From Candidatus Saccharimonadales bacterium (GTDB taxonomy: Bacteria; Patescibacteriota; Saccharimonadia; Saccharimonadales; SZUA-47), in contig JBGSRU010000005.1 in assembly GCA_041737385.1 (NCBI GenBank), positions 128 to 64,127 on the forward strand: a stretch of 64,000 nucleotides of DNA, in the 5' to 3' direction. The notes beneath the pieces were generated by a model, which did not search any database, was not told where the DNA came from, and was given only the letters and a program-made list of their open reading frames with translations. A program made the translations under genes and the position numbers. Below are positions 19,019-59,609 of the stretch, in pieces (positions within the stretch are counted from its first letter, which is position 1; every line of letters begins with the position of its first letter).

Positions 19019-19432
19019 ATGACTACTCGTCCGACCAAAAAACAACACGAGTTACTGGCTTATCTACGTGAATTTATCGCTGAACATGGCTATTCGCCAA
19101 GTTACCGTGAGATTATGAAGGGCTGCAACTATACGTCTGTCGCAACTGTTGCTTTACATGTTAAGAATCTGATAGCGAGAGGCCATGTAGTAAAGCGAGA
19201 TAAATCTGCACGATCGCTTGAAGTTGTGAAAGGTATTGAAGAAAGTGCAACTGCTAAAAGCAACCACAAACATGAACTCGTCAAAGAGATTGAAGCTCGT
19301 TTCTCTGCATTGGAAAAGACGCTAGAACAAGACGTGTTGGACGAGATTTATGTGCTTGTTGGTGCGCTGAAAATTCTCGGTCACCGAGAAATTGCTCTGG
19401 TCTATATTGGTAAGATTAACGCGTTAACTTAA
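19019..19432 (+). CDS. LexA-type winged-helix DNA-binding protein without S24 peptidase domain
   Basis: LT.KQ.ELL.YL..FI.EHGYSPSYREI is typical of the LexA N-terminal domain. The C-terminal 70 aa are helical with no Ser/Lys peptidase motifs. Confidence 0.6.
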   Translation: MTTRPTKKQHELLAYLREFIAEHGYSPSYREIMKGCNYTSVATVALHVKNLIARGHVVKRDKSARSLEVVKGIEESATAKSNHKHELVKEIEARFSALEKTLEQDVLDEIYVLVGALKILGHREIALVYIGKINALT

Positions 19433-19511: not shown

Positions 19512-22500
19512 ATGCACATAAGACAGGGGTCTCGTCATGGTATACGAGGGTTACTTCAGGTCGTTAGGCCTGTATTTTTGATGCTGAAAAAGTTTTATTT
19601 TTCTCTATTATTTTTCGCGTGTTTTTACTTAGAGCTATATAGTGCGCGCTTATTCGCTCGTTTTGTTGTTTTGAGTGTCGCTCTGCTCCGCTTTCTTCAT
19701 AGTAAAACAGTGAGAAGGTTGGATGAACGACTTACTCGTCGCAGTAACCCATATCGAAAGTGGAGCAGTTGGCGGTTTTCACAGCCACTCCAGAAACTAA
19801 CACTTGGAGTATATAGTTTGCTAATTGGGACGCTGCTGTTCTCGCAGCTACAAACAATACTCGCGGCGCCTGATCTGCTCGATATCTGGAACTTCGCAAC
19901 CCCTGCTAACTACACAATAGATAACGGGTTGCAGACAAACGGTACAAGTCTAGAAATGAAACCGCAGAATTACGTAAGCGACGCAAATACAGCTGCACTA
20001 TTTCACTTTGATGAGTCATCTGGTGTCTCGGCTGTCGATAGCTCGAGTAACGGCAATAACGGTACGATCAACAATAGTTCGTTTGTTGGTGGTCAGTTAT
20101 TCAACGGGTTAGAGCTTAACAACACAAATGATTATGTGTCAGTACCCGATTCCACATCTATTTCACTCAACCAGCAGAACAGTTTAGAAGCTTGGACAAA
20201 ATTAAGCACTAGTTTTGATTCGACAAATCACGACAGACGGCAGTCAATTATAGACAAAGGTGATTATCAGCTCTATTATGACAACGAAACTGGAAAAATT
20301 ACTTATGAGTTAGCTAACGGATCGTCAAATACGTGGAATCAAGAAGCAGGGAATGGGGTACAGAATAGCTGGACAACTAGTAGTAGTAGAACGGTGACTT
20401 CAAGTGCGGCAATAGGGTCCAGTGTGTATGTTGGCCTAGGAAATCAAACAACTGACGCGGCAGTCTGGCGATGGGACGGAGGCGTATGGACTCGAATCGG
20501 TGGCGACGGACTCAATAATTCTTGGCAGTCACAGACATACGAAGATGTTTACTCGATGACGACCGACGGTACGAACCTGTATGTTGGACTTGGCGTCACT
20601 GCTGGAGACGGTGAAGTGTGGATGTGGAACGGTGCAACGTGGACCAAAATCGGCGGTGACGGTATAAATAACGGCTGGCAGGTGAGTACGTTTGAAACGA
20701 TCTGGGCGCTTGATTATTTTGGTGGAACTTTGTACGCGGGCCTTGGCTCTAGCGCAAACGACGGCGAAGTTTGGTCGTGGAATGGCACAACCTGGACCAA
20801 AATCGGCGGCGATAGCCTAAACTCTGGCTGGACAACTAATTATGAAATAGCAGGAACACTTACAAATGATGGCACAAACCTGTATGCAGGCTTGGGGGTC
20901 AGTACGGGCGACGCTGAAATCTGGCGCTGGAACGGTACTGTGTGGACCAAAATCGGCGGCGACGGCCTAAATACCAGCTGGAATACTAGCTATGAAACAG
21001 TACGTACACTTAAGTACTTTTCCGGAACATTGTACGCTGGTCTCGGTGACAGTGCTGGAGACGCCGAAATCTGGACCTGGAACGGTACTGCTTGGTCACA
21101 AATCGGCGGCGACGGCTTAAGTGGAAGTTGGGCCACAAACTACGAAGGTGTTTATGCAATAGGAACTGACGGAACTAACATTTATGCCGGTCTTGGTACG
21201 GGTAATGGTGACGGCGAAGTATGGCGGTTAAGCGCAGGAGTGTGGTCACAAATCGGCGGCGACGGCTTAAGCGCTGGCTGGTCTACTAATGAGGGCGATG
21301 TAGTTCAGACGTTAGTAAATATTGGATCTACCGTGTATGCGGGAACGTACGATACTGGCGGCGGTGGCTATTTGTCTTCTTGGAATGGCACAACATGGAC
21401 AAGGCTAGGTGGCCAATATGTAAATAAAAGCTGGGGATTTTTCGGTCAAGGAACCGTGGAGGTTATGCAGGCGGCGGGTGAATACTTGTACGCTGGTATG
21501 GGCAATACGCTTGGGTCGGCCCAGGTGTGGCGATTTGATGGAGCAAACTGGGAGCTAGTGGGTGGACAAGGTGTAAACAGCAGTTGGAGCGAAAACACTT
21601 ATGAAACTATAACTAGTATGAGTTCCCATAATGGTAATTTGTACGCCGGCCTTGGTAACAGCGCGAATGACGGCGAAGTTTGGATGTGGAACGGCACAAA
21701 TTGGACCAAAATCGGTGGCGACAGCCTAAACTCTGGCTGGACCACAAACTTCGAAGAAGTGAATGCACTGGCTTCGTATAATGGTAATTTGTACGCCGGC
21801 CTTGGTAACAGCGCGAATGACGGCGAAGTTTGGATGTGGAACGGCACAAATTGGACCAAAATCGGTGGCGACAGCCTAAACTCTGGCTGGACCACAAACT
21901 ATGAACGAGTAAGCTCTCTAGGAGTATTTAATGGCCAGCTTGTAGCTGGTCTCGGTGCAAGTGCGGGAGACGCTGAGGTTTGGACCTGGAACGGTACTGT
22001 GTGGACCAAAATCGGTGGCGACAGCCTAAACTCTGGCTGGACCACAAACTATGAACAAGTTGAAGCGATAATTCCATACAATAATAGCTTGCTTGTAAGT
22101 TTAGGAAATACAGCCGGAGACGCTGAAGTCTGGTCCTGGAACGGTACAGTATGGACTAAAATAGGCGGCGATGATTTGAACGGTAGCTGGACAGATGGTA
22201 CATATGAAAGAGCCAGAACTCTAGCTGTGTATAACGGTGATGTTTACGCCGGTCTAGGCAGTTCTAGTGGTGACGGTGAGGTATGGAGATATCGAGATAA
22301 TTCGTGGACAAAGTTGGCGGGAAATAATGTAAATGGTTCCTGGTCAAACACGATAGAAGAAGTCGAGGCGTTTAGCGCTTATAAAGGCAAGCTCTATGCT
22401 GGTACGGGTAATACCGCAAATGCCGACGGGGCTGTTTGGAGCATCGGCAATAATGGGTTTTTGCAGTCAACTACTAGTAGTTTCGACACAAGCTGGAGAC

Positions 22501-25500
22501 ATATCGCTGCAACCTATGACGGTGTAACGATGAAATTGTTTGTGAACGGTGTCCAAGAATCAGCAACTTCTAAGTCCCTAACTTTGCCGGACAGTAATCG
22601 TCCGCTATTAATCGGGAATGGGTACGGAGGACGCGAATATGGTAAACCGTTGGCGAGCTTTGAAGGAATACTAGACGAAGTACGAATTAGTAACATTGCT
22701 CGCTCCAGCTTTATATCTAAGCCATATTCTCAGAGCCCCCAAGTGGTCTCGCCTACCACATCTGTGAGAAAAATCGGGGTTGAGCAGTGGGACTCATTTG
22801 TTGCGAACGAAACAGCAAATGGCGGCTCAATACGGTATCGTTTATCAAACAATGGCGGCGCTAGCTGGCAGTTCTGGAATGGCGCAAACTGGGTAGCGTC
22901 TAGTTCTCTAGCAGAGTCAAATCCTCAAGCTATCATTAGTGCAAATGTGGCAGAATTTCCTGTAACTTTTGATGGTTTCCTTTGGCAGGCAATTCTGCAG
23001 AGCGATGGAAACCAAAATGTAACCTTGAACAATCTTACTTTGCAGTCAACTTCTGATACAACCTCGCCGACAACTAATGCAGCAAATATTGTTGCCACCA
23101 AAACAAACGGGGGCAGTGCGCTGGCATCAAACGGCTGGACTAATAGTGGCTCTCCAAAATTCACTTGGGATCCAGGTATCGATAGCGGATCTGGAATTCT
23201 TGGCTACTGCGCTTATTTGGGGCTAGATAATTCAGCCGATCCCGTAACAACTGCAGGGTTGCTTGGAGTATCATCAGTAGCAACCGGCGGAAACTGTCAG
23301 TTTATTGTTTCTGGTGAACAGTTGGATACAGCGACGGCAGGGTACCTTTCCAGCCCACTTACGACTTCATCTGCGCCTTACTATTTGACGCTAAAAGCGA
23401 TAGATAAAGGCGGAAATATTTCAAGCACATCAGAACAATTTTTCTTCAGGTTCGATAATACGCCGCCAAGTAATCCTAGTTTTGTAAGCGCACCGTCTGG
23501 ATTCGTAAATGATAAAGCCGTAACCCTAACCTGGCCTACAGCTGGTGGTAGTGCCCCACAGGACGCCAACTCGGGACTTGCTGGACTGCAATATAACATC
23601 GCTAATACGGGATGGTATGGAGATATTCATAGTGGTACCGGCGATGCTTCAGATCTTTTGATAAACGACGGCAGTTATACGATGCAAGATCCACCTGATT
23701 TTACCAATTTAGTCGATGGTATTAACAATGTAACTTTCAGAACGTGGGATGTTGCTGGTAACGTGACAATAAACTATACGACTGCGACGATTAAGCTAAA
23801 CACTTCTGGGGCTCCGTCAGAACCGCAGAATCTGCAAGCATCACCGCCTACAAATGTTGTTAACGCTTTTAGTTATAGTTGGAATGCGCCGGCTTCGTTT
23901 ATTGGTGATAGCAATAATATTCAGTACTGCTATACGGTCAACACCATCCCGACTAGTGGTTCATGTACCTTTACTAGTGGTGGTGTTACGTCACTTGGAT
24001 CAGGTCCATATGCTACTCAACCGGGAGTGAACACGTTGTACGTTGTCGCTCGTGATGAGTCAAACAACATTAACTATGCGAGTTTTAGTTCAGTAAACTT
24101 TACTGCCAATACGCCATCACCAGGAATTCCACTGAACGTAGATATTGTCGATGTTTCGATTAAAGTCACGAATAACTGGCGTTTAGCTTTAACGTGGGAA
24201 GAGCCGACGAATACGGGTGCGGGCATAGCAAGTTACAAAATCTATCGCTCAACAGACAATACAAGCTTTTCTCAAATTGGTAGCAGCTCAAGCACCACTT
24301 ATATTGATGCTGGATTGTCCCAGCAACGCTACTATTACTACGTTATTGGTTGTGATAGTACTAATAATTGTGGTGCAGATTCTGCTCGTATTAACGAACT
24401 GCCAACTGGCAAATTCACCTCGCCAGCTAGTCTGACTGCAGATCCTGTCGTTACAAATGTCACCACTAAAAAAGCGCTAATAAGCTGGAGTACTGATAGG
24501 CCAAGTGATTCAAGAATCGCAATCGGTACGACAAGCGGTACGTATAGCTCAGCTGAAGTTGCGAACTCTGAGCAGCTCACCGCTCACAATATCCAACTCG
24601 ATAATCTGAGTGCGGCAACAACGTATTACTACGTTGCAAAATGGACTGATGAGGATGGAAATATTGGTGCTAGCCAAGAGTACACGTTTATTACTGCTCC
24701 GGCTCCAACAATTAAAGAAGTATCGGTGCTTAAAACTACACTTAACAACTCCCTGATTCAATTTACCTCACGTAACGCAGCAAAAGTCGATCTAGTTTAT
24801 GGCAAGTCAGAATCTTTCGGTGGTGTCGTCAGCGTCAATACGTCAATCGAAGAATCTACCTATAGTGTTGATCTCAACTTACTTGATGATGGTGCAAAAT
24901 ACCTATTTAAAATCGTATCGTACGACAGTGAAGGTAATAGTTATGATGGTAATATATTCTCGTTCTCAACACCTCCTCGTCCACGCATAAATAATCTCCG
25001 CTTCCAGCCAATTGACGGTGAGCCAACAAGTACCCAGAGCGTCACTTGGCAGACAAATGTCCCGTCAACTACCAGTATCACCTACGGTAAAATTGATACT
25101 ACTGGTACTGTTTCACAAGAGAATGTTCTGGTTACAAATCACGAAATAGTTATCAGGAATCTACAAGACGATAGCGACTATTTCTTGGTTGCACAAAGTC
25201 GTGACGGTGATGGTAATCTAGCTATCTCAGACAGACAAGTATTTAGAACTGCCTTGGATACGAGACCACCGAAAATTAGTGATATCGTCATAGAAACATC
25301 TATCAGAGGGACAGGTGCAGAGGCCAGAGGCCAAGTAATTGTATCGTGGCGAACTGATGAGCCAGCCACCAGTCAAGTCGCCTATAGCGAAGGAAGCAAC
25401 GCAGTGTCTTTCAACAATAGAACTTCTGAAGGCAGCGGACTCGGTACTGAACATATTGTTATCGTGTCTGACTTACCAACTTCGCGAGTTTATAGCATCC

Positions 25501-25628
25501 AACCTATTGCGAAAGATCGTTCTAGTAATGAGGGCAGTGGTGAAGTGCAGACAGCAATCATAGGAAGAGCATCTGACAGCGTACTCACTATAATATTGAC
25601 AACTTTGCAGAGAGTATTTGGGTTTTAA
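19512..25628 (+). CDS. giant surface protein: N-terminal TM, split LamG domain enclosing about 13 propeller-type repeats, then multiple FN3/Ig-like domains
   Basis: 2038-aa ORF. LamG_3 N-half ALFHFDESSG..DSSSNGNNGT..DYVSVPDS..LEAWTKL. About 13 repeats of the form YAGLG...GDxEVWxWNGxxWTKIGGDxLNxxW. LamG C-half SWRHIAATYDGVTMKLFVNG...GILDEVRISNIARS. FN3-like segments, e.g. ISWSTDRPSDSRIAIG..TTYYYV. Confidence 0.85.
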   Translation: MHIRQGSRHGIRGLLQVVRPVFLMLKKFYFSLLFFACFYLELYSARLFARFVVLSVALLRFLHSKTVRRLDERLTRRSNPYRKWSSWRFSQPLQKLTLGVYSLLIGTLLFSQLQTILAAPDLLDIWNFATPANYTIDNGLQTNGTSLEMKPQNYVSDANTAALFHFDESSGVSAVDSSSNGNNGTINNSSFVGGQLFNGLELNNTNDYVSVPDSTSISLNQQNSLEAWTKLSTSFDSTNHDRRQSIIDKGDYQLYYDNETGKITYELANGSSNTWNQEAGNGVQNSWTTSSSRTVTSSAAIGSSVYVGLGNQTTDAAVWRWDGGVWTRIGGDGLNNSWQSQTYEDVYSMTTDGTNLYVGLGVTAGDGEVWMWNGATWTKIGGDGINNGWQVSTFETIWALDYFGGTLYAGLGSSANDGEVWSWNGTTWTKIGGDSLNSGWTTNYEIAGTLTNDGTNLYAGLGVSTGDAEIWRWNGTVWTKIGGDGLNTSWNTSYETVRTLKYFSGTLYAGLGDSAGDAEIWTWNGTAWSQIGGDGLSGSWATNYEGVYAIGTDGTNIYAGLGTGNGDGEVWRLSAGVWSQIGGDGLSAGWSTNEGDVVQTLVNIGSTVYAGTYDTGGGGYLSSWNGTTWTRLGGQYVNKSWGFFGQGTVEVMQAAGEYLYAGMGNTLGSAQVWRFDGANWELVGGQGVNSSWSENTYETITSMSSHNGNLYAGLGNSANDGEVWMWNGTNWTKIGGDSLNSGWTTNFEEVNALASYNGNLYAGLGNSANDGEVWMWNGTNWTKIGGDSLNSGWTTNYERVSSLGVFNGQLVAGLGASAGDAEVWTWNGTVWTKIGGDSLNSGWTTNYEQVEAIIPYNNSLLVSLGNTAGDAEVWSWNGTVWTKIGGDDLNGSWTDGTYERARTLAVYNGDVYAGLGSSSGDGEVWRYRDNSWTKLAGNNVNGSWSNTIEEVEAFSAYKGKLYAGTGNTANADGAVWSIGNNGFLQSTTSSFDTSWRHIAATYDGVTMKLFVNGVQESATSKSLTLPDSNRPLLIGNGYGGREYGKPLASFEGILDEVRISNIARSSFISKPYSQSPQVVSPTTSVRKIGVEQWDSFVANETANGGSIRYRLSNNGGASWQFWNGANWVASSSLAESNPQAIISANVAEFPVTFDGFLWQAILQSDGNQNVTLNNLTLQSTSDTTSPTTNAANIVATKTNGGSALASNGWTNSGSPKFTWDPGIDSGSGILGYCAYLGLDNSADPVTTAGLLGVSSVATGGNCQFIVSGEQLDTATAGYLSSPLTTSSAPYYLTLKAIDKGGNISSTSEQFFFRFDNTPPSNPSFVSAPSGFVNDKAVTLTWPTAGGSAPQDANSGLAGLQYNIANTGWYGDIHSGTGDASDLLINDGSYTMQDPPDFTNLVDGINNVTFRTWDVAGNVTINYTTATIKLNTSGAPSEPQNLQASPPTNVVNAFSYSWNAPASFIGDSNNIQYCYTVNTIPTSGSCTFTSGGVTSLGSGPYATQPGVNTLYVVARDESNNINYASFSSVNFTANTPSPGIPLNVDIVDVSIKVTNNWRLALTWEEPTNTGAGIASYKIYRSTDNTSFSQIGSSSSTTYIDAGLSQQRYYYYVIGCDSTNNCGADSARINELPTGKFTSPASLTADPVVTNVTTKKALISWSTDRPSDSRIAIGTTSGTYSSAEVANSEQLTAHNIQLDNLSAATTYYYVAKWTDEDGNIGASQEYTFITAPAPTIKEVSVLKTTLNNSLIQFTSRNAAKVDLVYGKSESFGGVVSVNTSIEESTYSVDLNLLDDGAKYLFKIVSYDSEGNSYDGNIFSFSTPPRPRINNLRFQPIDGEPTSTQSVTWQTNVPSTTSITYGKIDTTGTVSQENVLVTNHEIVIRNLQDDSDYFLVAQSRDGDGNLAISDRQVFRTALDTRPPKISDIVIETSIRGTGAEARGQVIVSWRTDEPATSQVAYSEGSNAVSFNNRTSEGSGLGTEHIVIVSDLPTSRVYSIQPIAKDRSSNEGSGEVQTAIIGRASDSVLTIILTTLQRVFGF
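20364..22467 (+). repeat. in-frame array of about 13 repeats of about 47-50 codons each (blade-like)
   Basis: The W.WNG..W..IGGD motif recurs 13 times in the translation. Confidence 0.85.
21628..21900 (+). repeat. perfect 123-bp direct duplication with 150-bp period, inside the repeat array
   Basis: 21628-21750 is identical to 21778-21900 (ataatggtaatttgtacgccggccttggtaacagcgcgaatgacggcgaagtttggatgtggaacggcacaaattggaccaaaatcggtggcgacagcctaaactctggctggaccacaaact). The 3' about 50 bp recur again near 22003-22050. Confidence 0.95.
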
Positions 25629-25631
25629 CAT

Positions 25632-26417
25632 ATGAATAGTGTTTTAAAAATATCAAACGTTGCACAAGAGTTTTTATCAGGAGATGATGAACTACAAGTA
25701 TTGAACAACGTTAAGTTTGATATAAAAGAGCAAACCTTCACTATCATATTTGGTCAGTCTGGCAGTGGAAAATCTACTATGCTCAATATACTTTCTGGTT
25801 TACAAAGACCAACTAGTGGTACAGTAACATTCCAAGACCGAAAGCTGTATGAGCTATCCAAAGACGAGCTCGCTAGGTTTCGTGCTGAGAAAATTGGCAT
25901 CGTTTATCAGACAAATTATTGGGTAAAAAGTCTCAGTGTTTTAGAGAACGTTTCCTTGCCGTTATATTTCCTCGGCTATTCACGCGCAAAAGCAGAGCCA
26001 AAGGCCAGAAAAGCACTCGAGCAAGTGGGTATGTTGTCATATGCGAATCGCCAGCCATTTTTCCTTTCAGGCGGTGAGCAACAGCGTGTTGCTTTTGCTC
26101 GGGCAATTATCAATGATCCCGAGCTACTGATAGCAGATGAACCAACTGGGAATCTTGATACCAAAAACGGCGATAAAATAATAAATCTTTTACGTGAGTA
26201 TATAGCTGAGCGCAAAGGCACTGTCATTATGGTGACGCATAACATGGAGTACTTGCCTCTCGCTGATCATCTACTACACATCCAAGACGGTAAAGTGCAA
26301 GATCTGAAAGCTACCAGCTATCAGGCTATGACGAAAGAATTGATGAACGACATGAAGGGGCGTATAGATGCACTTGCGATGTCGACAAAACACTCGAAAC
26401 AAGGAAAGAATACGTAA
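25632..26417 (+). CDS. ABC transporter ATP-binding protein (MacB/LolD-like)
   Basis: GQSGSGKST Walker A, LSGGEQQRVAFARA signature, LLIADEPTGNLD Walker B. Starts 4 nt after the giant gene's stop. Confidence 0.9.
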   Translation: MNSVLKISNVAQEFLSGDDELQVLNNVKFDIKEQTFTIIFGQSGSGKSTMLNILSGLQRPTSGTVTFQDRKLYELSKDELARFRAEKIGIVYQTNYWVKSLSVLENVSLPLYFLGYSRAKAEPKARKALEQVGMLSYANRQPFFLSGGEQQRVAFARAIINDPELLIADEPTGNLDTKNGDKIINLLREYIAERKGTVIMVTHNMEYLPLADHLLHIQDGKVQDLKATSYQAMTKELMNDMKGRIDALAMSTKHSKQGKNT

Positions 26418-27637
26418 TGGCGCTTTTTAATTCTATGACGAAAAGAAGAACGATAAGCCTAACAATGTTGCTCTATATTGCACGCCAGAATTTGCTGTCT
26501 AAAAAGTTGCGTACGAGCCTTACGCTTAGCGGTGTCATCATTGGTATCGGCGCAATATTTTTTCTATTATCTTTTGGGCTTGGTTTGCAGAAAATTGTCA
26601 CTGATGAAATAGTTGGCAACCAATCAATTAAATCAATAGATGTTAGTAGCCCAAACTCAGCATTGTTGCTACTTAATCAAGATTCACTTAATAAGTTTGT
26701 AGAACTTCCAAATGTCGACGCTGCTGGTGGATCATTTTTGCTTCCAGGTGTGGTCCAAGTTAAAGGGAGTGAAGTAGACGCAGTTACTTACGGAGTTGAT
26801 CAACAATACCAATCAATTAGTAATTTTACAGCTTCAATTGGTCGTCTGTTGCTTGATGAAGATAACCGGCAAGTGGTGGTTAACACTTCCTTACTTGAAA
26901 CTATTGGGCTTAGTAATGACGAGTTTGTACTAGGCACGATTCTCACTCTGCAAATTCCGTTTAAAACCGCACTTGGCCCACAGGAAATAGATGAGGAATT
27001 TGAGATTGTCGGTATCATTAACTCTGGAGCAGGTAGTGAAGTGCTTATACCGGCACACGTTTTGCAAGCAGCTGGAGCAGATACATTTTCTCAAGTGAAA
27101 ATTATCGTAAACAATAATGATAATGTGGGGGGCATACGCTCACAAGTTGAAGCACTTGGGTTTGAAACAGTCTCTCCAATAGATACTATTGAACAGATCA
27201 ACCAAATATTCCGCTACTTTAACATTATACTCGGAGGATTTGGAGCAATTGGCATGATTGTTGCGATACTTGGTATGTTTAACACGCTGACCATTTCATT
27301 ATTAGAACGAACGAAAGAAATTGGTTTGATGATAGCGCTTGGTGCAAAAAGTCGAGATATGAAACAGCTGTTTGTTCTAGAAGCTTTAATTTTGTCTATT
27401 TCTGGAGCAGTAATTGGTATTATTTTGGCATTAATTACTGGGGGAGTGTTTAACACACTTACAAATCAATATGCAAAAGCCAGAGGTGTTACAGATTCGT
27501 TTAACTTATTTTCAACACCTTGGTGGCTTACGACTGGAGTGATTGTTTTTATGGCATCAATAGGGCTGTTAGTGGTGTATTTTCCAGCACGCAGAGCGGA
27601 GCATATTAGCCCTATTGAAGCTTTGCGCCGTGAATAA
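26417..27637 (+). CDS. ABC transporter permease, FtsX/MacB type
   Basis: N-terminal TM, a large extracytoplasmic domain, and a C-terminal FtsX-like three-TM bundle (ERTKEIGLMIALGA). Overlaps the ATPase stop. Confidence 0.85.
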   Translation: MALFNSMTKRRTISLTMLLYIARQNLLSKKLRTSLTLSGVIIGIGAIFFLLSFGLGLQKIVTDEIVGNQSIKSIDVSSPNSALLLLNQDSLNKFVELPNVDAAGGSFLLPGVVQVKGSEVDAVTYGVDQQYQSISNFTASIGRLLLDEDNRQVVVNTSLLETIGLSNDEFVLGTILTLQIPFKTALGPQEIDEEFEIVGIINSGAGSEVLIPAHVLQAAGADTFSQVKIIVNNNDNVGGIRSQVEALGFETVSPIDTIEQINQIFRYFNIILGGFGAIGMIVAILGMFNTLTISLLERTKEIGLMIALGAKSRDMKQLFVLEALILSISGAVIGIILALITGGVFNTLTNQYAKARGVTDSFNLFSTPWWLTTGVIVFMASIGLLVVYFPARRAEHISPIEALRRE

Positions 27638-27679: not shown

Positions 27680-28408
27680 ATGAACCGTATTCCTGCATCA
27701 GTATTGCGTAGACGTCGGACAGTTATTATTGGTTTGTTGAGTCTTCTTTTGTTGCTTATTGGTACTAGCCCGGGCAGTATATCGAAGCAGAAATCTGTTG
27801 ATGATCCGCAGTCCGCTGTTCTGTCCGACTCTATTAATACAGAACAAGCGGTAGATGCTCTTGATGAACTGGAGGTGAAAGGTCGCGCGTCTAAAGCTGG
27901 TTATGCGCGCGACGAGTTTGGTTCGGGCTGGGCATCGATTGATGGTTGTGACACACGAAATATTATTCTTAAAGACATGATGAGTGAAGTTGTTTTATCT
28001 GATGATAGCTGTATCGTTTTGAGGGGCACACTGCAAGATCTATATACCGGAGAAGTTATAGATTTTGTCCGTGGCAGTACAACTAGCGATAAAGTGCAGA
28101 TTGACCATGTTGTGGCGCTCAGTGATTCATGGCAAAAGGGTGCTCAGCAGTTAGACTTCTCTGAACGGGTGGTGCTAGCCAACGATCCGCTTAATCTTCT
28201 GGCAGTCGATGGACCAGCTAATCAGCAGAAAGGCGATAGTGATGCAGCCAGTTGGCTACCACCCAATAAAGCCTATCGTTGCCGTTACGTCGCTCGGCAA
28301 ATTTCGGTAAAGCGAAAGTATAGGTTGTGGATAACTGACGCAGAAAAGTCTGCAATGAAACGAGTATTAAACGGGTGCGGAGAACAGGTGTTGCCGGTTG
28401 AAACGTAA
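27680..28408 (+). CDS. secreted/anchored DUF1524-type HNH nuclease
   Basis: Signal/anchor RRRRTVIIGLLSLLLLLIG. Nuclease motif QIDHVVALSDSW...NLLAVDGPANQQKGDSDAASWLP. Confidence 0.7.
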   Translation: MNRIPASVLRRRRTVIIGLLSLLLLLIGTSPGSISKQKSVDDPQSAVLSDSINTEQAVDALDELEVKGRASKAGYARDEFGSGWASIDGCDTRNIILKDMMSEVVLSDDSCIVLRGTLQDLYTGEVIDFVRGSTTSDKVQIDHVVALSDSWQKGAQQLDFSERVVLANDPLNLLAVDGPANQQKGDSDAASWLPPNKAYRCRYVARQISVKRKYRLWITDAEKSAMKRVLNGCGEQVLPVET

Positions 28409-29834
28409 GATTCATATATCATGGCTGGTCGCTAGCTTAAGCGTAGGGTTACTATTGGGTGTATTTGGTGCGCTCTACACCACAAACTTTTCTGGCAACG
28501 AGTGGGCGGTCTTGTCGATGTGCATTGGAACAATTGGGGTTATGAGGCGTGATCCTAGTGCCGTTGTGCTAGTTTTAGTTGCCGGACTGTTACTCGGGCT
28601 TTGGAGAGGAGGCAACGAAATTAACGCACAAAAGGGCTACGTAGAATTTTACGGCAGCACTGTAGTACTGCAAGGCATAGTCAGAGAGGATCCTAGTTAT
28701 GATGTTGATGGTGACTTGCGAATGCGTCTCAAAGAGGTTGTTGTTGACGGAAAGAACACTCCGGGTGATGTGTGGGTTTCACTGCGAGAGCGGGTGGTTA
28801 TTAAGAGATCAGACAGCATTATCGTTGAAGGGCAGCTATCAAAAGGCTTTGGTACTATTCCAGCAGCTTTGTATCGCGCTCGTGTGCAAAAAATCGAAAG
28901 ACAAGCGTTCTCGGACGTCGGTCGGGAGACACGTGATGAGTTTGCAGAAGGTATTCGTGAAGGCGTACAAGAACCAGAAGCGTCGCTTGGAAGTGGGTTT
29001 TTGCTTGGCCAAAAAACCGCACTACCAGAAAAATTAGACCAAGAATTGAGGCTACTTGGGTTGACGCATATTGTCGTAGCAAGTGGCTATAACCTCAGTA
29101 TTTTGGTGCGATTTGCACGTCGTTTGTTTGCAAAAGTTTCTCGTTTTACTGCGCTGTCTCTATCAGGTCTTCTGGTGTTTGGGTTCGCAAATATTACTGG
29201 GTTTAGCCCTAGCATGAGTCGCGCTGCATTAATTACTTCTCTCAGCTTGCTAGCTTGGTACTTTGGTCGTAAATTTCACCCGCTTGTGCTGTTGCCATTT
29301 TCGGCTGCAATAACGGTATATATTACTCCTTCATACGCGTGGGGAGATATTGGATGGCTGCTTTCTTTTATGTCATTTATTGGAGTCATTATGCTATCTC
29401 CGCTTATTCATAGTTACTTTTGGGGTGATAAGAAAGCAGGTAATATACGTCAGGTTTTCATCGAAACCATGTCAGCACAACTACTCACTCTTCCCATTAT
29501 TGCTTTTGTATTTGGTCAATATTCGCCTCTCGCTTTACTAGCGAACCTTCTGATATTGCCACTGATTCCTATCGCAATGTTACTAACATTTATAGCAGGG
29601 ATCTGTGGATTATTGTTACCCTCAGCTGCATCTATGGTGGGCTGGCCCGCAGAAGTAGTCATGAGATACATGACTTCGGTTGTTGATATTCTTGCTCAGC
29701 AGCCATCTGCAACGAGTGAGGTGAAGTTTAGCATAACTAGTGTTTTGATTTTTTATGTTGTTCTTGTCGGAGCTATGGTTTACCTATGGCGTCGGACTCA
29801 TTATGAGTTTAGAGACTACAACATCATAGAGTAG
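28398..29834 (+). CDS. comEC: ComEC/Rec2 DNA internalisation channel, short form (DUF4131 plus competence domain, no metallo-beta-lactamase domain)
   Basis: LGLTHIVVASGYNLSIL and multiple TM segments. The 478 aa end without an HxHxDH motif. The TTG start overlaps the nuclease gene by 11 nt. Confidence 0.8.
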   Translation: MKRKIHISWLVASLSVGLLLGVFGALYTTNFSGNEWAVLSMCIGTIGVMRRDPSAVVLVLVAGLLLGLWRGGNEINAQKGYVEFYGSTVVLQGIVREDPSYDVDGDLRMRLKEVVVDGKNTPGDVWVSLRERVVIKRSDSIIVEGQLSKGFGTIPAALYRARVQKIERQAFSDVGRETRDEFAEGIREGVQEPEASLGSGFLLGQKTALPEKLDQELRLLGLTHIVVASGYNLSILVRFARRLFAKVSRFTALSLSGLLVFGFANITGFSPSMSRAALITSLSLLAWYFGRKFHPLVLLPFSAAITVYITPSYAWGDIGWLLSFMSFIGVIMLSPLIHSYFWGDKKAGNIRQVFIETMSAQLLTLPIIAFVFGQYSPLALLANLLILPLIPIAMLLTFIAGICGLLLPSAASMVGWPAEVVMRYMTSVVDILAQQPSATSEVKFSITSVLIFYVVLVGAMVYLWRRTHYEFRDYNIIE

Positions 29835-29897
29835 TCTAATTTGTAATTATTGTAAAATATGTTCTGCAAAGGTCAGACCTCCGCAGAGGAAATTAAT

Positions 29898-29926
29898 TTG
29901 ACATAATGTTGCATCAGAGAGATACT
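29898..29926 (+). promoter_or_regulatory. candidate promoter TTGACA-17-GATACT
   Basis: ttgacataatgttgcatcagagagatact, 25 nt upstream of the GTG at 29951. Confidence 0.35.
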
Positions 29927-29950
29927 AACAAACATAAGCGAGGTTAACGT

Positions 29951-31594
29951 GTGAAGATTTTGCTGACTATGCTATTTTTGGCTATCTCAATGCATCCTAT
30001 GGCCTATGCTAATGCAGAAGAAATCACACTATTACAACCTTCAGAAATGATTATCTTTCAGGTTAAAACTGAAGGAAATAGTGCAGCTGAAGAATACATG
30101 CTCCTCTACAATCAGTCACCAACTGCTGTAGACATGATGGGGTGGTGTCTTTCATACACGACGGCAGGTGATAACCCAAGCACTGCATTATCAGAAATAT
30201 GTATCGATGGTGAATTCTTAGTTCTCGCTGGAGAGTTTGTGTCATTTGGTACCAATGAGTTCGTCGCAGCTACTGGATACTCGGTAGATTTTCTATTCGT
30301 TGGAGGGATGAACGCAACGGGTGGTCATATGAGGCTATTTGATATGAGCGAACAGGAAGTTGATAAAGTTGGGTGGGGAACCGCAGTCGCTCCAGAGCTC
30401 TCCACAAGTTTAGTCGCGCCAGCTAAACACAACAAACAACAAACACTAAGCCGTCATCTGAATGCATCCGAACTCGATACAAACGACAATTTTAATGACT
30501 TCACTAGCCGTGATATTTTGTACCAGTGTCCAGTTAGTAAGATGCTGCTCTCGGCTGATTATTTTGTTGATAAATCAGGGCTGTGTATGAAAAGATTTTG
30601 TCCAAATCTGATTGATTCTACTCTCGAAGCCCCAGATGGATACTACAAGCCAGATGGCCAAGAAAACTGTGAGTTGTTACCAGTTGCACTTGAAAACGCA
30701 GTATTGTTTATAACGGAAATATATCCAAATGCTCCGAGCAGTGATGATGGCAAAGAGTTTATAGAGCTTTATAATCCTAACGATAGGACTATTTCACTGA
30801 CAGGCTACACGTTACAACTTGGACCTGATTTTACGAAACAGTTTATTTTCAGTGGTGGCGACATAAAACCGAATGAGTACATTATTTTTTCAGATACAAT
30901 CACGGGAATAGTGTTACCAAACTCAACTGGTCAAAAAATTCGTCTAATTGCACCTGACAGCACGATAGTTTCAGACTCAACGAGTTATTCAAACGCGCAA
31001 GACGATGAATCATGGTCGCTAGTGGAAGACCAATGGATTTGGACAAATCAAATAACTCCAGCCGCTGCAAATAAGCCGTTTCTTGTCCCCGCTGTTGATG
31101 AAGTTGAGGGTGTAACAAGCATACTCGCGCCATGTCCTGCTGGTAAGTTTAGAAATCCAGACACTAACAGATGTAAAACACTAGAAACAGCGGTTTCTTT
31201 GCTTGCCCCATGTGACGAGGATGAATTTAGAAATCCTGAGACTAATCGATGCAACAAAGTTAGTGCTTCGTCAGCATCTCTCACACCGTGTAAAGTCGGA
31301 CAGGTCAGGAATCCTGAAACTAATCGTTGTCGTGCAGTAGAGTCTTCAAGTAGTCTCCAGCCGTGTGAAGAGGGTGAAGAACGTAACGCGGAGACAAATC
31401 GCTGTCGTAAAGTTTCTGTGCTTGGAGCTACGGATGATCTATTAAATGGTGTTCAAGATGTTGAAGCAGAGACTTCAGCTGGCCAACTAAACATACCAAT
31501 GATTACGGCGGTACTTGGTGCTACAATCGGCTACATTGTATATGAATGGCGTGTTGAAATCAGTAGATACTTTAGATTTAGAAAAACTCTTTAG
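29951..31594 (+). CDS. lamin-tail-domain (LTD) protein with two LTDs, four Cys-bracketed repeats and a C-terminal TM anchor
   Basis: Signal peptide. LTD motifs EEYMLLYNQS..VDMMGWCL and ITEIYPNAP..GKEFIELYNPNDRTISLTGYTL. Four copies of PCxxxxxRN(P/A)(D/E)TNRC (nt 31125-31410). Hydrophobic C-terminus plus a basic tail. Confidence 0.8.
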   Translation: MKILLTMLFLAISMHPMAYANAEEITLLQPSEMIIFQVKTEGNSAAEEYMLLYNQSPTAVDMMGWCLSYTTAGDNPSTALSEICIDGEFLVLAGEFVSFGTNEFVAATGYSVDFLFVGGMNATGGHMRLFDMSEQEVDKVGWGTAVAPELSTSLVAPAKHNKQQTLSRHLNASELDTNDNFNDFTSRDILYQCPVSKMLLSADYFVDKSGLCMKRFCPNLIDSTLEAPDGYYKPDGQENCELLPVALENAVLFITEIYPNAPSSDDGKEFIELYNPNDRTISLTGYTLQLGPDFTKQFIFSGGDIKPNEYIIFSDTITGIVLPNSTGQKIRLIAPDSTIVSDSTSYSNAQDDESWSLVEDQWIWTNQITPAAANKPFLVPAVDEVEGVTSILAPCPAGKFRNPDTNRCKTLETAVSLLAPCDEDEFRNPETNRCNKVSASSASLTPCKVGQVRNPETNRCRAVESSSSLQPCEEGEERNAETNRCRKVSVLGATDDLLNGVQDVEAETSAGQLNIPMITAVLGATIGYIVYEWRVEISRYFRFRKTL

Positions 31595-31631: not shown

Positions 31632-32108
31632 ATGACAAGTAATTTAGGATTTGAGTTTGACGGTATCGGCAAACGGCTACAGCAGATAGTGCCTACTGAA
31701 GGTGTGCCAACTTTTAAATTTGGTGACGCTGAAATCACTGTCAGCTTCAAGAATCCTACAGCCGAACATAGAAGAGTGAAAGCTACTGCACAGTTAGGAC
31801 CCAAGGCGCTGGGAGGGTTTGAGCTGATGGTAGGATTGGGCGACACGTTAACTGAGTTATTTCCTGATGGAGCCCACTTTTATTTAACAACTGGAGTCAC
31901 CGGCACGGCTCTTGATATAGGCCGAAGTCAAGAAAGAATACTTTTTTCAGCTGCAAGTTGGTGGGATAAAATAGCGTTGATGGGACCTGCGGAACATGGG
32001 GCTACCCTTACAGAACAGCAAATGGATAGATTGATGACTGAACAAACGGCGCTGATGGCAGCTGAAAGAGTTTTGTCATTAGTGTATAGGGCGCTAGAGG
32101 TGAATTGA
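31632..32108 (+). CDS. hypothetical protein (paralog 1)
   Basis: 158-aa ORF. No family recognised. Paralogous to 32109-32540. Confidence 0.5.
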   Translation: MTSNLGFEFDGIGKRLQQIVPTEGVPTFKFGDAEITVSFKNPTAEHRRVKATAQLGPKALGGFELMVGLGDTLTELFPDGAHFYLTTGVTGTALDIGRSQERILFSAASWWDKIALMGPAEHGATLTEQQMDRLMTEQTALMAAERVLSLVYRALEVN

Positions 32109-32171: not shown

Positions 32172-32540
32172 GTGCCTAAACAGGGCATTCCCTCAATTCA
32201 GTTTGACGAAGCTGCTACTCGCGCTGAATGGAAAATTCGTGGTGAACGAAAAGTTGTTGAATCGTCGATCTGGTTAGGTTCAGAGACTTTGTCAGGATTG
32301 GATATGATGCTTGGTCTAAAAGACGGAATGATAACTCTTTTCCCAGAGGGAGCGCATCTTATTGTGGCTGTTGGTATTGGGGTTACACAAGGACTGGTTC
32401 TAGAAGATGACCAAGGTAGAAGACTGTATAGTGCGTATAACTCAGGCTCTTTTTTACTAATTCAAGAGTCAGACTTGGCACACGGTATCCTTTCACCTGA
32501 ACAGACAGAGTTATTGGTGGAGCAGAGAACTGCACTATGA
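32172..32540 (+). CDS. hypothetical protein (paralog 2), N-terminally disrupted and possibly a pseudogene
   Basis: Same frame as paralog 1. Homology extends upstream to about 32124, but the original start is lost and there is an in-frame TAA at 32157-32159. The only usable start is the GTG at 32172, which has no SD. Confidence 0.4.
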   Translation: MPKQGIPSIQFDEAATRAEWKIRGERKVVESSIWLGSETLSGLDMMLGLKDGMITLFPEGAHLIVAVGIGVTQGLVLEDDQGRRLYSAYNSGSFLLIQESDLAHGILSPEQTELLVEQRTAL

Positions 32541-53691: not shown

Positions 53692-54183
53692 TCACATCTT
53701 GACAATAGACCAGTTGCCCTCAATGCGTTTTAAAGTTAGTATTTTTTGAGAGTTGCTATTGAGCTTATATTGCACCACAGCGTTTCTATAGCCACCCTTT
53801 GTCCAAATAAAATCAGTAACATTACTTTTCTCATGAGATTGTACAAAAGTTTCTAGTTCATATTTTACTTCAAGCTTCGCATTTACGACTATCGGCTCAC
53901 CTTTATTGATGTCTCTAGCAGCATAATCACACTGCTTCGTAAAGTCTGAGTACACAGTAGGATTGGTAGAATGATTGGTGTATCTTGATGGTTCAGGGAA
54001 CAGGTACAACTTTCCATAGAATGAATGTACAAATTTTCGCTCGTTTTTCTGTAGATTATCAAATTCACTCTGAGATATTAGTTGCAAATTCCAACGTTTA
54101 ACTAGTTCACCTTTCTTGAAATTCCGACCTGCGTACAGTCCTTTGCCGTCTAGTTTACCTTTACCAATAGTTATGTCAGACAT
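53692..54183 (-). CDS. SET-domain protein (putative lysine methyltransferase)
   Basis: GKGLYAGRNFKKGELV, RYTNHSTNPTV (NHS-type motif), and DINKGEPIV. Confidence 0.6.
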   Translation of the reverse strand: MSDITIGKGKLDGKGLYAGRNFKKGELVKRWNLQLISQSEFDNLQKNERKFVHSFYGKLYLFPEPSRYTNHSTNPTVYSDFTKQCDYAARDINKGEPIVVNAKLEVKYELETFVQSHEKSNVTDFIWTKGGYRNAVVQYKLNSNSQKILTLKRIEGNWSIVKM

Positions 54184-57811: not shown

Positions 57812-58762
57812 ATGACAAAGCAGATAACAAAGAAACAGCACTTCGCACCACGCTTTTATTTCAAACGGTTTGCTGTTGATAATATGTTACAGACTTTAGA
57901 TATTCAAAAAGGCAAACTTATAAAAGCACGACCTTATAGCGGTGTTTGTTATGCCGACTTTTACTACGCTGTTGAAACTGGAAAAGAAGACGAAACAAGC
58001 CAAGTATTTGAACAGTATTTTAGCGACATTGAAGATAAGTTTGCCAAAGAGTATGACGCCATCGTTGACGCAATATGGAACTATCGCCCACTAACAGACC
58101 AGCAGTTAGATATTCTAGCGTGGTTTATGGCTTCCCTTTGGATTAGAAGTCCGCATATGCGAAGACAGGTAAACAAGACTATGGCTGATGGTATGAAGCA
58201 AATAACTACATTAATGGCTTCACACCCAAACTTTACCGAAGGGGCTAAAGAAGGTTTAGAAAAAGAGGGACATAAAGTATCTGATGAGCAGATTGAAAAC
58301 GCTAGAAAGACGCTTGAAAGTGGCGAGTATGAACTAACCTTTGAGAATAACATCAACCACCTAAATCTGATTGCACACTGTGAAGAGTTTCATAGGTGGT
58401 TTCTTATAAAAAAATGGCGGTTTTATTTAGCCAAAGGCTCAAAAAAGTTCATAACTACCGATACACCAGTGATTGAAGTATTCAATAAAACTGGTAAAAC
58501 AATGATTGAAAAAATGTACAGCAACCATATAGCCCAAAGACGACACTACTTTGCTTTGACACCCGAAATACTAATTGAGCTTATTGACCCTCTAACTCCT
58601 GGCAAGAAGCAAAAACGGCACGCACTATCAGACGATAGAGCGGTGATTGAAATAAACCGCCTACTTGTTATCTACTCAAAAGATTATGCCTACGCCAATG
58701 ACAAAGAGTATCTTGAAGATTTACTACAATTCTATACAGGCGTACCACAGGAAGTGATATAG
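57812..58762 (+). CDS. DUF4238-family protein (family of the single-gene anti-phage system Rst_DUF4238)
   Basis: The N-terminal KKQHFAPRFYFKRFA matches the H(Y/F)xP(Q/R)FYL(K/R)xF signature I recall for DUF4238. Size 316 aa. Confidence 0.6.
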   Translation: MTKQITKKQHFAPRFYFKRFAVDNMLQTLDIQKGKLIKARPYSGVCYADFYYAVETGKEDETSQVFEQYFSDIEDKFAKEYDAIVDAIWNYRPLTDQQLDILAWFMASLWIRSPHMRRQVNKTMADGMKQITTLMASHPNFTEGAKEGLEKEGHKVSDEQIENARKTLESGEYELTFENNINHLNLIAHCEEFHRWFLIKKWRFYLAKGSKKFITTDTPVIEVFNKTGKTMIEKMYSNHIAQRRHYFALTPEILIELIDPLTPGKKQKRHALSDDRAVIEINRLLVIYSKDYAYANDKEYLEDLLQFYTGVPQEVI

Positions 58763-58856
58763 GGGGGGGTAGTCGCCCCTTGTTCTAGCGTTTAGAGACT
58801 CCGCCGTGTATATACCTAATTTGTGGGAGCAGAAAAAACCAAGTGTTTTTCTATAC

Positions 58857-59609
58857 CTAGACTGACAACCTTTTGTCTTCGTATTCTTTCTGTTCAATCG
58901 CCTTTTGTTTTATCTTATCAAGTATGTCCCTCGGTCCAGATAGGTAGCTCTCAAACTCTTTAATGTTTGAGTCCTTAATCCAAAGCTGACCCTCGCCAAC
59001 ATTGCCCCTATGCTGACCTTTTGAGAAATACTTATTACTTTCAACATCGTGGCTAGAAAGCACCCAATACCTAATAGCGTCACGCCATACGCCGACCCAG
59101 ACAAAAACATCACAGTGTGCAGGTTTTATCTGCTGAAAGTTCATATCAAAACCGTGTGTAGAGTCGCTAGAAAGGGCTTTGTTAATAAGCGAGTCGCCAC
59201 TTTTTCTTTTGACAGCCCGTGAAGCTTTTACTTCAATGCGAACACCCTCATACCAAAAATCATAATCGCCTGCATAAGCGTCGTGGTAGTCTTTTGAGGG
59301 ACGCTTTAGCTCAGGTGCAAGCTCATTGAGGTGTCGTTGAGCCCACGTTTCGCCGAAAGTTCTAGGTGCTGTAATTTCAAAAATATACAGATACTTGTTT
59401 TTCTCAAGATAGGCATTTCTTATCTCAAGGTATTGGTCTAGGTTTAATATGTCTTCCGCAATCAAGTGGCTAATAACATACTCAAACTTGTTAAAAGGAA
59501 ACACAGAGTAAAGACTGTCTAGTGCTTCATCGCTCAAATCATACTTATCGCCACACTTGTCGTGTAACCTTTTAATTTCTGCCTTTAATTCTTCAATCAG
59601 TTGTTCCAT
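58857..59609 (-). CDS. putative type II restriction endonuclease (PD-(D/E)xK)
   Basis: GDYDFWYEGVRIEVKAS fits D..(11-13)..ExK. Overlaps the methylase stop by 17 nt. Confidence 0.45.
   Translation of the reverse strand: MEQLIEELKAEIKRLHDKCGDKYDLSDEALDSLYSVFPFNKFEYVISHLIAEDILNLDQYLEIRNAYLEKNKYLYIFEITAPRTFGETWAQRHLNELAPELKRPSKDYHDAYAGDYDFWYEGVRIEVKASRAVKRKSGDSLINKALSSDSTHGFDMNFQQIKPAHCDVFVWVGVWRDAIRYWVLSSHDVESNKYFSKGQHRGNVGEGQLWIKDSNIKEFESYLSGPRDILDKIKQKAIEQKEYEDKRLSV

Follow-up and report, generated by a model that had tools for sequence, protein, structure and literature searches.

This report concerns three genes that stand together on the forward strand of a 64-kb window (the whole stretch of DNA analysed) of a contig from a Saccharibacterium (TM7, Patescibacteria): a gene for a predicted exported nuclease of the DUF1524 (GmrSD_C) family, a gene for a ComEC/Rec2 protein of the type known from the candidate phyla radiation (CPR), and a gene for a surface protein with lamin-tail domains (LTDs). 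The principal finding is that, as judged from gene order and overlaps here and in relatives, the nuclease and comEC genes constitute a genuine operon, closely coupled, across much of the Saccharibacteria, and that this ComEC has no metallo-beta-lactamase (MBL) nuclease of its own. Given a coupled operon that is kept amid reshuffled flanks, an apparently intact exported nuclease and a ComEC without a nuclease domain, we regard it as an even proposition that the DUF1524 protein is an accessory nuclease for transformation akin to EndA or NucA, by function and not by sequence family.

In full-length ComEC, the non-transforming strand is degraded by the MBL domain. About half of all ComECs are without this domain, and the disposal of the strand in such cases has been described as 'an open and interesting question'; in the case of H. 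pylori, authors have invoked 'yet a further mechanism'. Within the CPR, an MBL-less ComEC (DUF4131 plus Competence, 'DC', fam000603) is present in 86% of genomes, and a fusion to an MBL domain in only six. The known competence nucleases that act in trans are EndA of the pneumococcus and NucA of B. subtilis. DUF1524 has been described only in the context of GmrSD, and we found no mention of it together with ComEC in the literature searched.

Gene calls and the nuclease-comEC junction

Open reading frame (ORF) analysis of the window places the nuclease gene at 27680..28408 (+, 242 aa), comEC at 28398..29834 (+, 478 aa, TTG start) and the LTD protein gene at 29951..31594 (+, 547 aa, GTG start). 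Same-length homologues of all three proteins, numbering hundreds to thousands for each, carry the name Candidatus Saccharibacteria, and the organism is therefore a Saccharibacterium. An earlier note on this DNA, prepared from the letters alone, had described an 11-nt overlap between the nuclease and comEC genes, and this was borne out: the TAA of the nuclease ends at 28408 and the TTG of comEC lies at 28398 (overlap 28398..28408, +), an arrangement that we read from the sequence as translational coupling. The TTG is the sole in-frame start from the upstream stop (28368) to the conserved N-terminal residues H6, S8 and W9, which are common to homologues whose alignment begins at residue 1-3.

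The two available gene calls for ComEC differ in length, at 438 aa in NCBI (P0001) versus 478 aa in Logan. The NCBI protein begins 40 codons past the conserved N-terminus (window 28398-28517), an annotation that masks the overlap with the nuclease; as TTG 28398 is the only start ahead of the conserved N-terminus, the 438-aa call is probably too short.

Between comEC and the LTD gene is a 116-nt spacer with a promoter-like site, TTGACA-17-GATACT (29898..29926, +). A scan of the locus for promoters and terminators gave the same counts as shuffled sequence, and promoter-like sites in the region (21 found versus 15.7 +/- 4.1 in shuffles) were not enriched; as such, transcription of the LTD gene from a promoter of its own in the spacer is put forward only as a weak lead.

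A ComEC without the metallo-beta-lactamase domain

The window ComEC matches PF03772 (Competence) at 3.3e-41, with 141.9 bits against a cut-off of 23 and profile positions 2-269 of 270 covered, and also matches TIGR00360 of NCBIfam at 6e-15 (55.9 bits versus 36.5). The match to DUF4131 (PF13567) reaches 24 bits, below the 31.6 cut-off of Pfam; most close homologues carry a precomputed PF13567 match, and an OB fold has been assigned by structure to the orthologue in Southlakia epibionticum, where deletion of comEC abolishes natural transformation. The protein ends approximately 13 residues past the channel domain, no match to Lactamase_B was returned by Pfam at E <= 0.1, and the HxHxDH motif is absent both from ComEC and from the six-frame translation of the 64-kb window. 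These results uphold the earlier description of a 478-aa ComEC without an MBL domain, and the protein is a ComEC of the CPR type, with a probable OB fold, a competence channel and no MBL nuclease. More than 2,300 homologues of equal length are named ComEC of Saccharibacteria. The earlier note had recognized that a separate full-length ComEC or MBL gene would speak against its proposal; neither of these, nor a ComEA/helix-hairpin-helix (HhH) or other competence gene, was found when the larger ORFs of the window (mostly >= 150 aa) were scanned with Pfam and its six frames searched for HxHxDH.

The DUF1524 nuclease

Assignment of the upstream gene to DUF1524, as first suggested in the earlier note, is secured by a Pfam match to PF07510 (GmrSD_C/DUF1524) at 3.6e-20 (72.7 bits versus a cut-off of 23), which extends along almost the whole length of the domain. 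In the AlphaFold2 (AF2) model (pLDDT 88.8), an N-terminal hydrophobic helix spans aa 6-28, aa 33-51 are a disordered linker and aa 55-242 fold into a compact domain. The family match, the alignment and the model together place a beta-beta-alpha-metal core in this domain, with a catalytic His at the end of strand 139-143 in the motif Q-I-D-H, and a metal-binding Asn (Asn181) inside helix 178-184. The residues of the catalytic core (28103..28222, +), namely D142-H143 (28103-28108), N168 (28181-28183) and N181 (28220-28222), together with K184, are invariant across 34 homologues of 58-68% identity; the loss of catalytic residues, which the earlier note had named as a finding that would tell against its proposal, is thus not seen. 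Four cysteines (C90, C111, C201 and C233) are invariant in the same homologues and suggest two disulfides, hence an extracytoplasmic protein. From the N-terminal helix and these cysteines the nuclease is predicted to be exported, and both release and tethering to the membrane would fit. We consider the protein, on the strength of these predictions, to be a stand-alone and intact exported His-Me-finger nuclease.

Structural comparison with Foldseek ranks Vvn and the Endonuclease I of Vibrio (V. cholerae/V. salmonicida) first (probability ~1, E ~1e-2, TM-score 0.32-0.41, 13-17% identity), followed by Cas9 HNH domains and BrxU. The Pfam scan found no nuclease family besides DUF1524, and in particular neither PF04231 (Endonuclease I) nor Endonuclease_NS, the motif being QIDH and not DRGH.

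A role as a GmrSD-type or other defence enzyme was considered and rejected. DUF1524 stands alone in the 242 aa with no DUF262 (GmrS, ParB-like) domain, the neighbouring genes encode an FtsX permease and ComEC, the PADLOC defence models gave no match, and the predicted topology is that of an exported protein.

Conservation of the neighbourhood

A scan for ComEC with one genome per species yielded 531 relatives, of which the 80 best loci (44-67% identity) were taken further, neighbour families being assigned by hidden Markov models (HMMs) built from the homologue sets and percentages being based on loci that have enough flanking sequence. The nuclease lies directly upstream of comEC on the same strand in 26/67 loci (39%), and this adjacency spans ComEC identities of 47-67%. 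In approximately 19 of 27 nuclease-bearing loci the nuclease stop overlaps or abuts the comEC start, the spacing being -11 nt in nine loci and -4 nt in seven, with single loci at -1, 0 and -17 nt. An LTD-family gene is found downstream of comEC on the same strand in 50 of 58 loci (86%) and directly adjoins it in 14 of those 58; where the nuclease is present, the LTD gene is the very next gene after comEC in 20/26 loci. The remaining genomes have the order comEC-(type IV pilin x1-2)-yebC-LTD-ruvC (family names verified by Pfam), and the LTD gene keeps to comEC even where yebC and ruvC leave the neighbourhood. The LTD gene is thus the more persistent of the two partners of comEC. That the trio would prove to be conserved neighbours, as the earlier note had anticipated, holds in part: the full trio occurs in 17/54 loci (31%), and in approximately 61% of the species-level genomes the nuclease does not adjoin comEC.

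Outside the trio, the neighbourhood varies in almost every nuclease-bearing locus. As the genes ahead of the nuclease come from 13 families and those after the LTD gene from at least 19, we conclude that the order of the trio and its coding overlaps have been retained while the flanks were reshuffled. It is this contrast that bears on the simplest alternative, in which the three genes are functionally unrelated and their synteny has merely been inherited in small, slowly rearranging genomes. The adjacency does map to a few deep clades, the three orthologues in Southlakia differ in essentiality (see below) and a promoter-like site stands ahead of the LTD gene, all of which would suit such an explanation; with internal order and overlaps kept amid flanks that differ nearly everywhere, however, we hold it to be highly improbable.

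Many independent origins of the nuclease-comEC adjacency were also considered and set aside. On a rough neighbour-joining tree of ComEC the adjacency fills several deep clades, and the tree fits one or two events.

The LTD gene lies within the classical yebC-ruvC pair in most Saccharibacteria (loci L015-L081, e.g. L046, CP011211.1, and L028, OY970356.1). Immediately ahead of the nuclease, eight related genomes carry a LexA-like gene (family F13) in the same orientation, itself preceded by a GtrA-like gene. Its counterpart in the window (19019-19429, +) encodes a 137-aa protein with the LexA DNA-binding domain only (PF01726, 3e-12) and no S24 peptidase, which, to judge from this placement, could regulate the competence operon. 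In comparison with the gtrA, lexA-like, nuclease order of the relatives, the window has a block inserted between the lexA-like gene and the nuclease (19512-27637, +). The block encodes a MacB-type ABC pair (ATPase 25632-26417; FtsX/MacB_PCD permease 26417-27637) and a 2038-aa surface protein, in which many tandem repeats of ~47 aa ('GDG.VW.WNG..WTKIGGD.LN..W') are accompanied by Laminin_G_3 and FN3-like domains.

Three comEC loci of the Saccharibacteria type are filed under other taxa: L013 (JBKEDB010000170.1, Cumulibacter sp.), L018 (Parcubacteria) and L066 (Nomurabacteria). These contigs probably represent binning contamination or mislabelling, and the actinobacterial case, L013, may be one of host and epibiont binned together.

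The proposed role of the coupled nuclease

Taking the above together, the locus would be a competence (DNA-uptake) locus of a Saccharibacterium, in which ComEC would import single-stranded DNA for natural transformation and the coupled nuclease would most likely act on the external side of the membrane to process double-stranded DNA as it arrives, either by making ends for ComEC (as NucA does), by degrading the non-transported strand (as EndA does), or both. We infer in this model both the activity of the nuclease on transforming DNA and its physical or functional coupling to ComEC.

Several considerations weigh against this proposal. The closest solved folds, Vvn, Dns and Endonuclease I, belong to enzymes that are reported to reduce transformation. 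The adjacency traces to one or two ancestral events on the ComEC tree, so that shared descent contributes to its present spread, and the nuclease is unlinked in the majority of species noted above. In Southlakia the orthologue SEML1_0519, a structure-assigned His-Me finger protein (Vvn-like), lies ~250 kb from comEC, belongs to a family that is not core in the CPR and is non-essential (Wang et al. 2023). Displacement of the non-transforming strand without degradation is, moreover, possible.

These same points lend themselves to a different explanation, in which the protein serves as a DNase of general purpose, extracellular or of periplasmic type, and its link to comEC is either a lineage-specific accident or antagonistic. 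It might then obtain phosphate or nucleosides from extracellular DNA, attack the DNA of the host or biofilm, or act, in the manner of Vvn and Dns, as a barrier to the uptake of foreign DNA. The lowered transformation associated with its nearest structures, the lack of linkage to comEC in most Saccharibacteria, Southlakia included, and the non-core standing of the family all agree with such a role, as does the size of the family: a homologue search returned at least 8,000 candidates, all at E <= 0.001, and the family is therefore probably much larger than the clade considered here. Against this, comEC overlaps of -11 or -4 nt have been kept across deeply diverged genomes while the flanks vary, and the likeness to Endonuclease I exists at the level of the fold only, given that Pfam assigns DUF1524 and not Endonuclease_1. 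On balance we regard a general DNase as rather unlikely, albeit a serious competitor to an accessory transformation nuclease.

The lamin-tail-domain surface protein

The two LTDs, the four Cys repeats and the C-terminal membrane anchor that had been discerned in the third gene by the earlier note were corroborated by Pfam, regular expression and AF2, respectively. Pfam matches PF00932 only, in two stretches (72.9 bits versus a cut-off of 34.3), corresponding to LTD1 (30032-30520, +) and LTD2 (30695-31090, +), and Foldseek matches these domains to the Ig fold of lamin A/C (1ifr, target TM-score 0.74, probability 1.0). The AF2 model (pLDDT 80.9) runs from a signal-like helix through LTD1, Cys-rich hairpins, LTD2 and four Cys hairpins to a transmembrane segment and a short cytoplasmic helix. 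The four PCx5RNx(E/D)TNRC repeats are indeed four in number, though they span 31130..31405 (+) and not 31125-31410 as previously given; at aa 399-487 they are modelled as hairpins forming a disulfide-type beta-hairpin stalk, and their Cys pairs are invariant in 40 homologues. No significant Pfam family was found for the repeats, and at E <= 10 only a sub-threshold TNFR-like match appeared. The viral '2-cysteine adaptor' domain was considered as a candidate for them; Pfam did not confirm it, and we assign no family.

The transmembrane anchor (aa 515-532) and cytoplasmic helix (31493..31591, +, from the AF2 model and alignment) carry the motif Y-x-x-Y-E-W-R-x-E. Among homologues of 40-59% identity Y528, E532 and R534 are invariant, and W515, Y531, W533 and E536 are nearly so, a degree of conservation over aa 515-547 that would be unusual for a passive anchor and suggests a specific membrane or cytoplasmic partner. 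The ectodomain is acidic in all 40 homologues, with a median isoelectric point (pI) of 4.30 (4.05-4.86) and a median net charge of -33.5 (-16 to -58); for the window protein itself the pI is approximately 4.3. By this measure, which is a proxy for a DNA-binding surface and not a binding assay, a positively charged DNA-binding surface is absent, and Pfam scans that included the Cys regions found no HhH or other DNA-binding domain.

The transposon sequencing (Tn-seq) data for Southlakia (Wang et al. 2023, Tables S1 and S2) speak to the function of this protein. There the gene order is comEC (SEML1_0777), yebC (0776), LTD protein (0775) and ruvC (0774), and SEML1_0775 is a protein of 630 aa with two LTDs and a Cys-rich domain, single copy, 'core' and 'Patescibacteria-enriched' (Wang et al. 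2023). From architecture, single-copy status and the synteny series, we infer that SEML1_0775 and SEML1_0519 are the orthologues of the window genes. At T0/T1/T2, comEC, although required for transformation, is non-essential (NE) throughout, as are yebC and the DUF1524 nuclease SEML1_0519 (each NE/NE/NE). The LTD gene is scored NE/ES/ES (ES, essential) and placed in class II of the essential genes, with insertions falling from 53 in the input DNA to 30, then 6, then 1; ruvC is scored NE/GD/ES. The main text of that paper never mentions SEML1_0775, nor does the paper address polarity. A polar effect is an unlikely cause of the essentiality of SEML1_0775, because yebC, which lies upstream of it, tolerates insertions, and because at T1 the LTD gene shows a more severe phenotype than ruvC, its downstream neighbour.

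The earlier note had cast the LTD protein as a surface DNA receptor that takes the place of ComEA and passes DNA to the nuclease and ComEC, with nucleotide scavenging as the purpose. Certain observations are congenial to this notion. Only 31% of CPR genomes have an annotated ComEA, and another mechanism for binding DNA has been suggested; in the great majority of loci the LTD gene stands downstream of comEC, and it stays there after the loss of yebC and ruvC from the neighbourhood; LTDs are met repeatedly on extracellular nucleases and MBL hydrolases, including haloarchaeal MBL 'ComA-like' proteins; and the conserved tail points to a membrane partner. However, the acidic ectodomain and the lack of any recognized DNA-binding domain are not what a receptor would lead one to expect, and ExeM without its LTD still degrades DNA in vivo. 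In Southlakia, moreover, growth on the host requires the orthologue but not ComEC, and none of comEC, comF and dprA is a fitness gene, which the authors took as evidence against nucleotide scavenging. As ComEC is dispensable and these three are not fitness genes, DNA import or scavenging through ComEC cannot be the essential role of the LTD protein. The scavenging proposal is thus contradicted by the Tn-seq data, with natural transformation being the process that is lost upon deletion of comEC, and we judge the LTD protein improbable as a receptor in place of ComEA. Overall, the interpretation given in the earlier note finds support in part.

The LTD protein would instead be an acidic, membrane-anchored surface protein with its main role in epibiotic growth, at the envelope or the host interface, and we consider such a role more likely than that of a dedicated DNA receptor. 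The role of bacterial LTDs has been described as 'not yet elucidated', and the linkage of comEC to the LTD gene, along with the LTDs found on extracellular nucleases and MBL hydrolases, leaves some room for a function related to DNA, a point which counts to some degree against separating this protein from uptake. A more inclusive arrangement can be envisioned as a split competence ectodomain, in which the DUF1524 nuclease would replace the MBL activity, ComEC would form the channel, and the LTD protein would position nuclease or DNA via its membrane and cytoplasmic motif while also providing an essential host contact that couples attachment to DNA acquisition. We think this quite doubtful.

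Other features of the window

Beyond the trio, the flanks of the window hold rhamnose and envelope-polysaccharide enzymes, transporters and a restriction-modification methylase. Two small, adjacent paralogous ORFs come directly after the LTD gene (31632-32108 and 32172-32540, +); they are 30-33% identical to each other, have no match in Pfam, NCBIfam or PADLOC, and were found in none of the 80 related loci. The interval 57812-61335 possibly represents a restriction-modification or defence islet, with a gene for a DUF4238 protein (57812-58762, +) not far from one for a fused N6-adenine methylase (59593-61335, -) that includes a TaqI-like specificity domain plus an Eco57I-like region. At 53692-54183 (-) there is a gene for a SET-domain protein.

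Significance

An MBL-less ComEC in the CPR and trans-acting competence nucleases, in the form of EndA and NucA, were already known. What is new here is the tie between the DUF1524 family and ComEC, by way of a coupled gene beside such a ComEC. Considering that nearly all CPR ComECs, and around half of ComECs overall, are without the strand-degrading domain, the coupled nuclease offers a concrete candidate for the missing activity. The linkage extends to ~39% of the sampled species of Saccharibacteria and concerns only a part of this phylum. The candidate lies in a phylum that is genetically tractable and naturally transformable, and its Southlakia orthologue is non-essential. The analysis also draws attention to an essential, Patescibacteria-enriched LTD surface protein with genomic ties to comEC, yebC and ruvC that went undiscussed in the main text of the Southlakia paper.

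Comparison with known systems

EndA of S. pneumoniae is the model for a nuclease acting in trans; it is an extracytoplasmic beta-beta-alpha-metal nuclease, distinct from ComEC, by which the non-transforming strand is degraded. The window nuclease is of another family and motif (DUF1524/GmrSD_C with Q-I-D-H, as opposed to Endonuclease_NS with DRGH). The pneumococcal ComEC keeps a (degenerate) MBL domain whereas the window ComEC has none, and an overlap of endA with comEC is not described in the EndA and ComEC papers, unlike the overlap present here. NucA, which operates with Nin in B. subtilis, is likewise a competence nuclease outside the cytoplasmic membrane, where it cuts double-stranded DNA and so makes ends for uptake. 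No inhibitor gene is evident here, and the window ComEC lacks the MBL domain that is present and active in its B. subtilis counterpart.

In terms of sequence family and fold, the relatives are of another kind. The type IV restriction enzymes GmrSD and BrxU (DUF262 plus DUF1524) share the PF07510 domain, and BrxU is among the fold matches; the window nuclease, by contrast, is without DUF262 and possesses invariant cysteines and, at its N-terminus, a membrane/signal helix. The Endonuclease I family (Vvn, Dns, EndoI) supplies the best structural matches, and its members are exported, disulfide-dependent and non-specific DNases. The resemblance is confined to the fold, and those enzymes lower transformation while the window gene would be co-translated with comEC.

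As for the LTD protein, ExeM of Shewanella, Hvo_1477 and the haloarchaeal MBL+LTD 'ComA' likewise have LTD Ig folds on envelope proteins tied to extracellular DNA. In contrast to those enzymes, the window protein has no catalytic domain and carries four Cys hairpins and a C-terminal transmembrane segment, and its Southlakia orthologue is essential. The CPR 'DC' ComEC shares the apparent architecture of the window ComEC, and the addition here is a gene for a nuclease that appears to be translationally coupled to it in a subclade.

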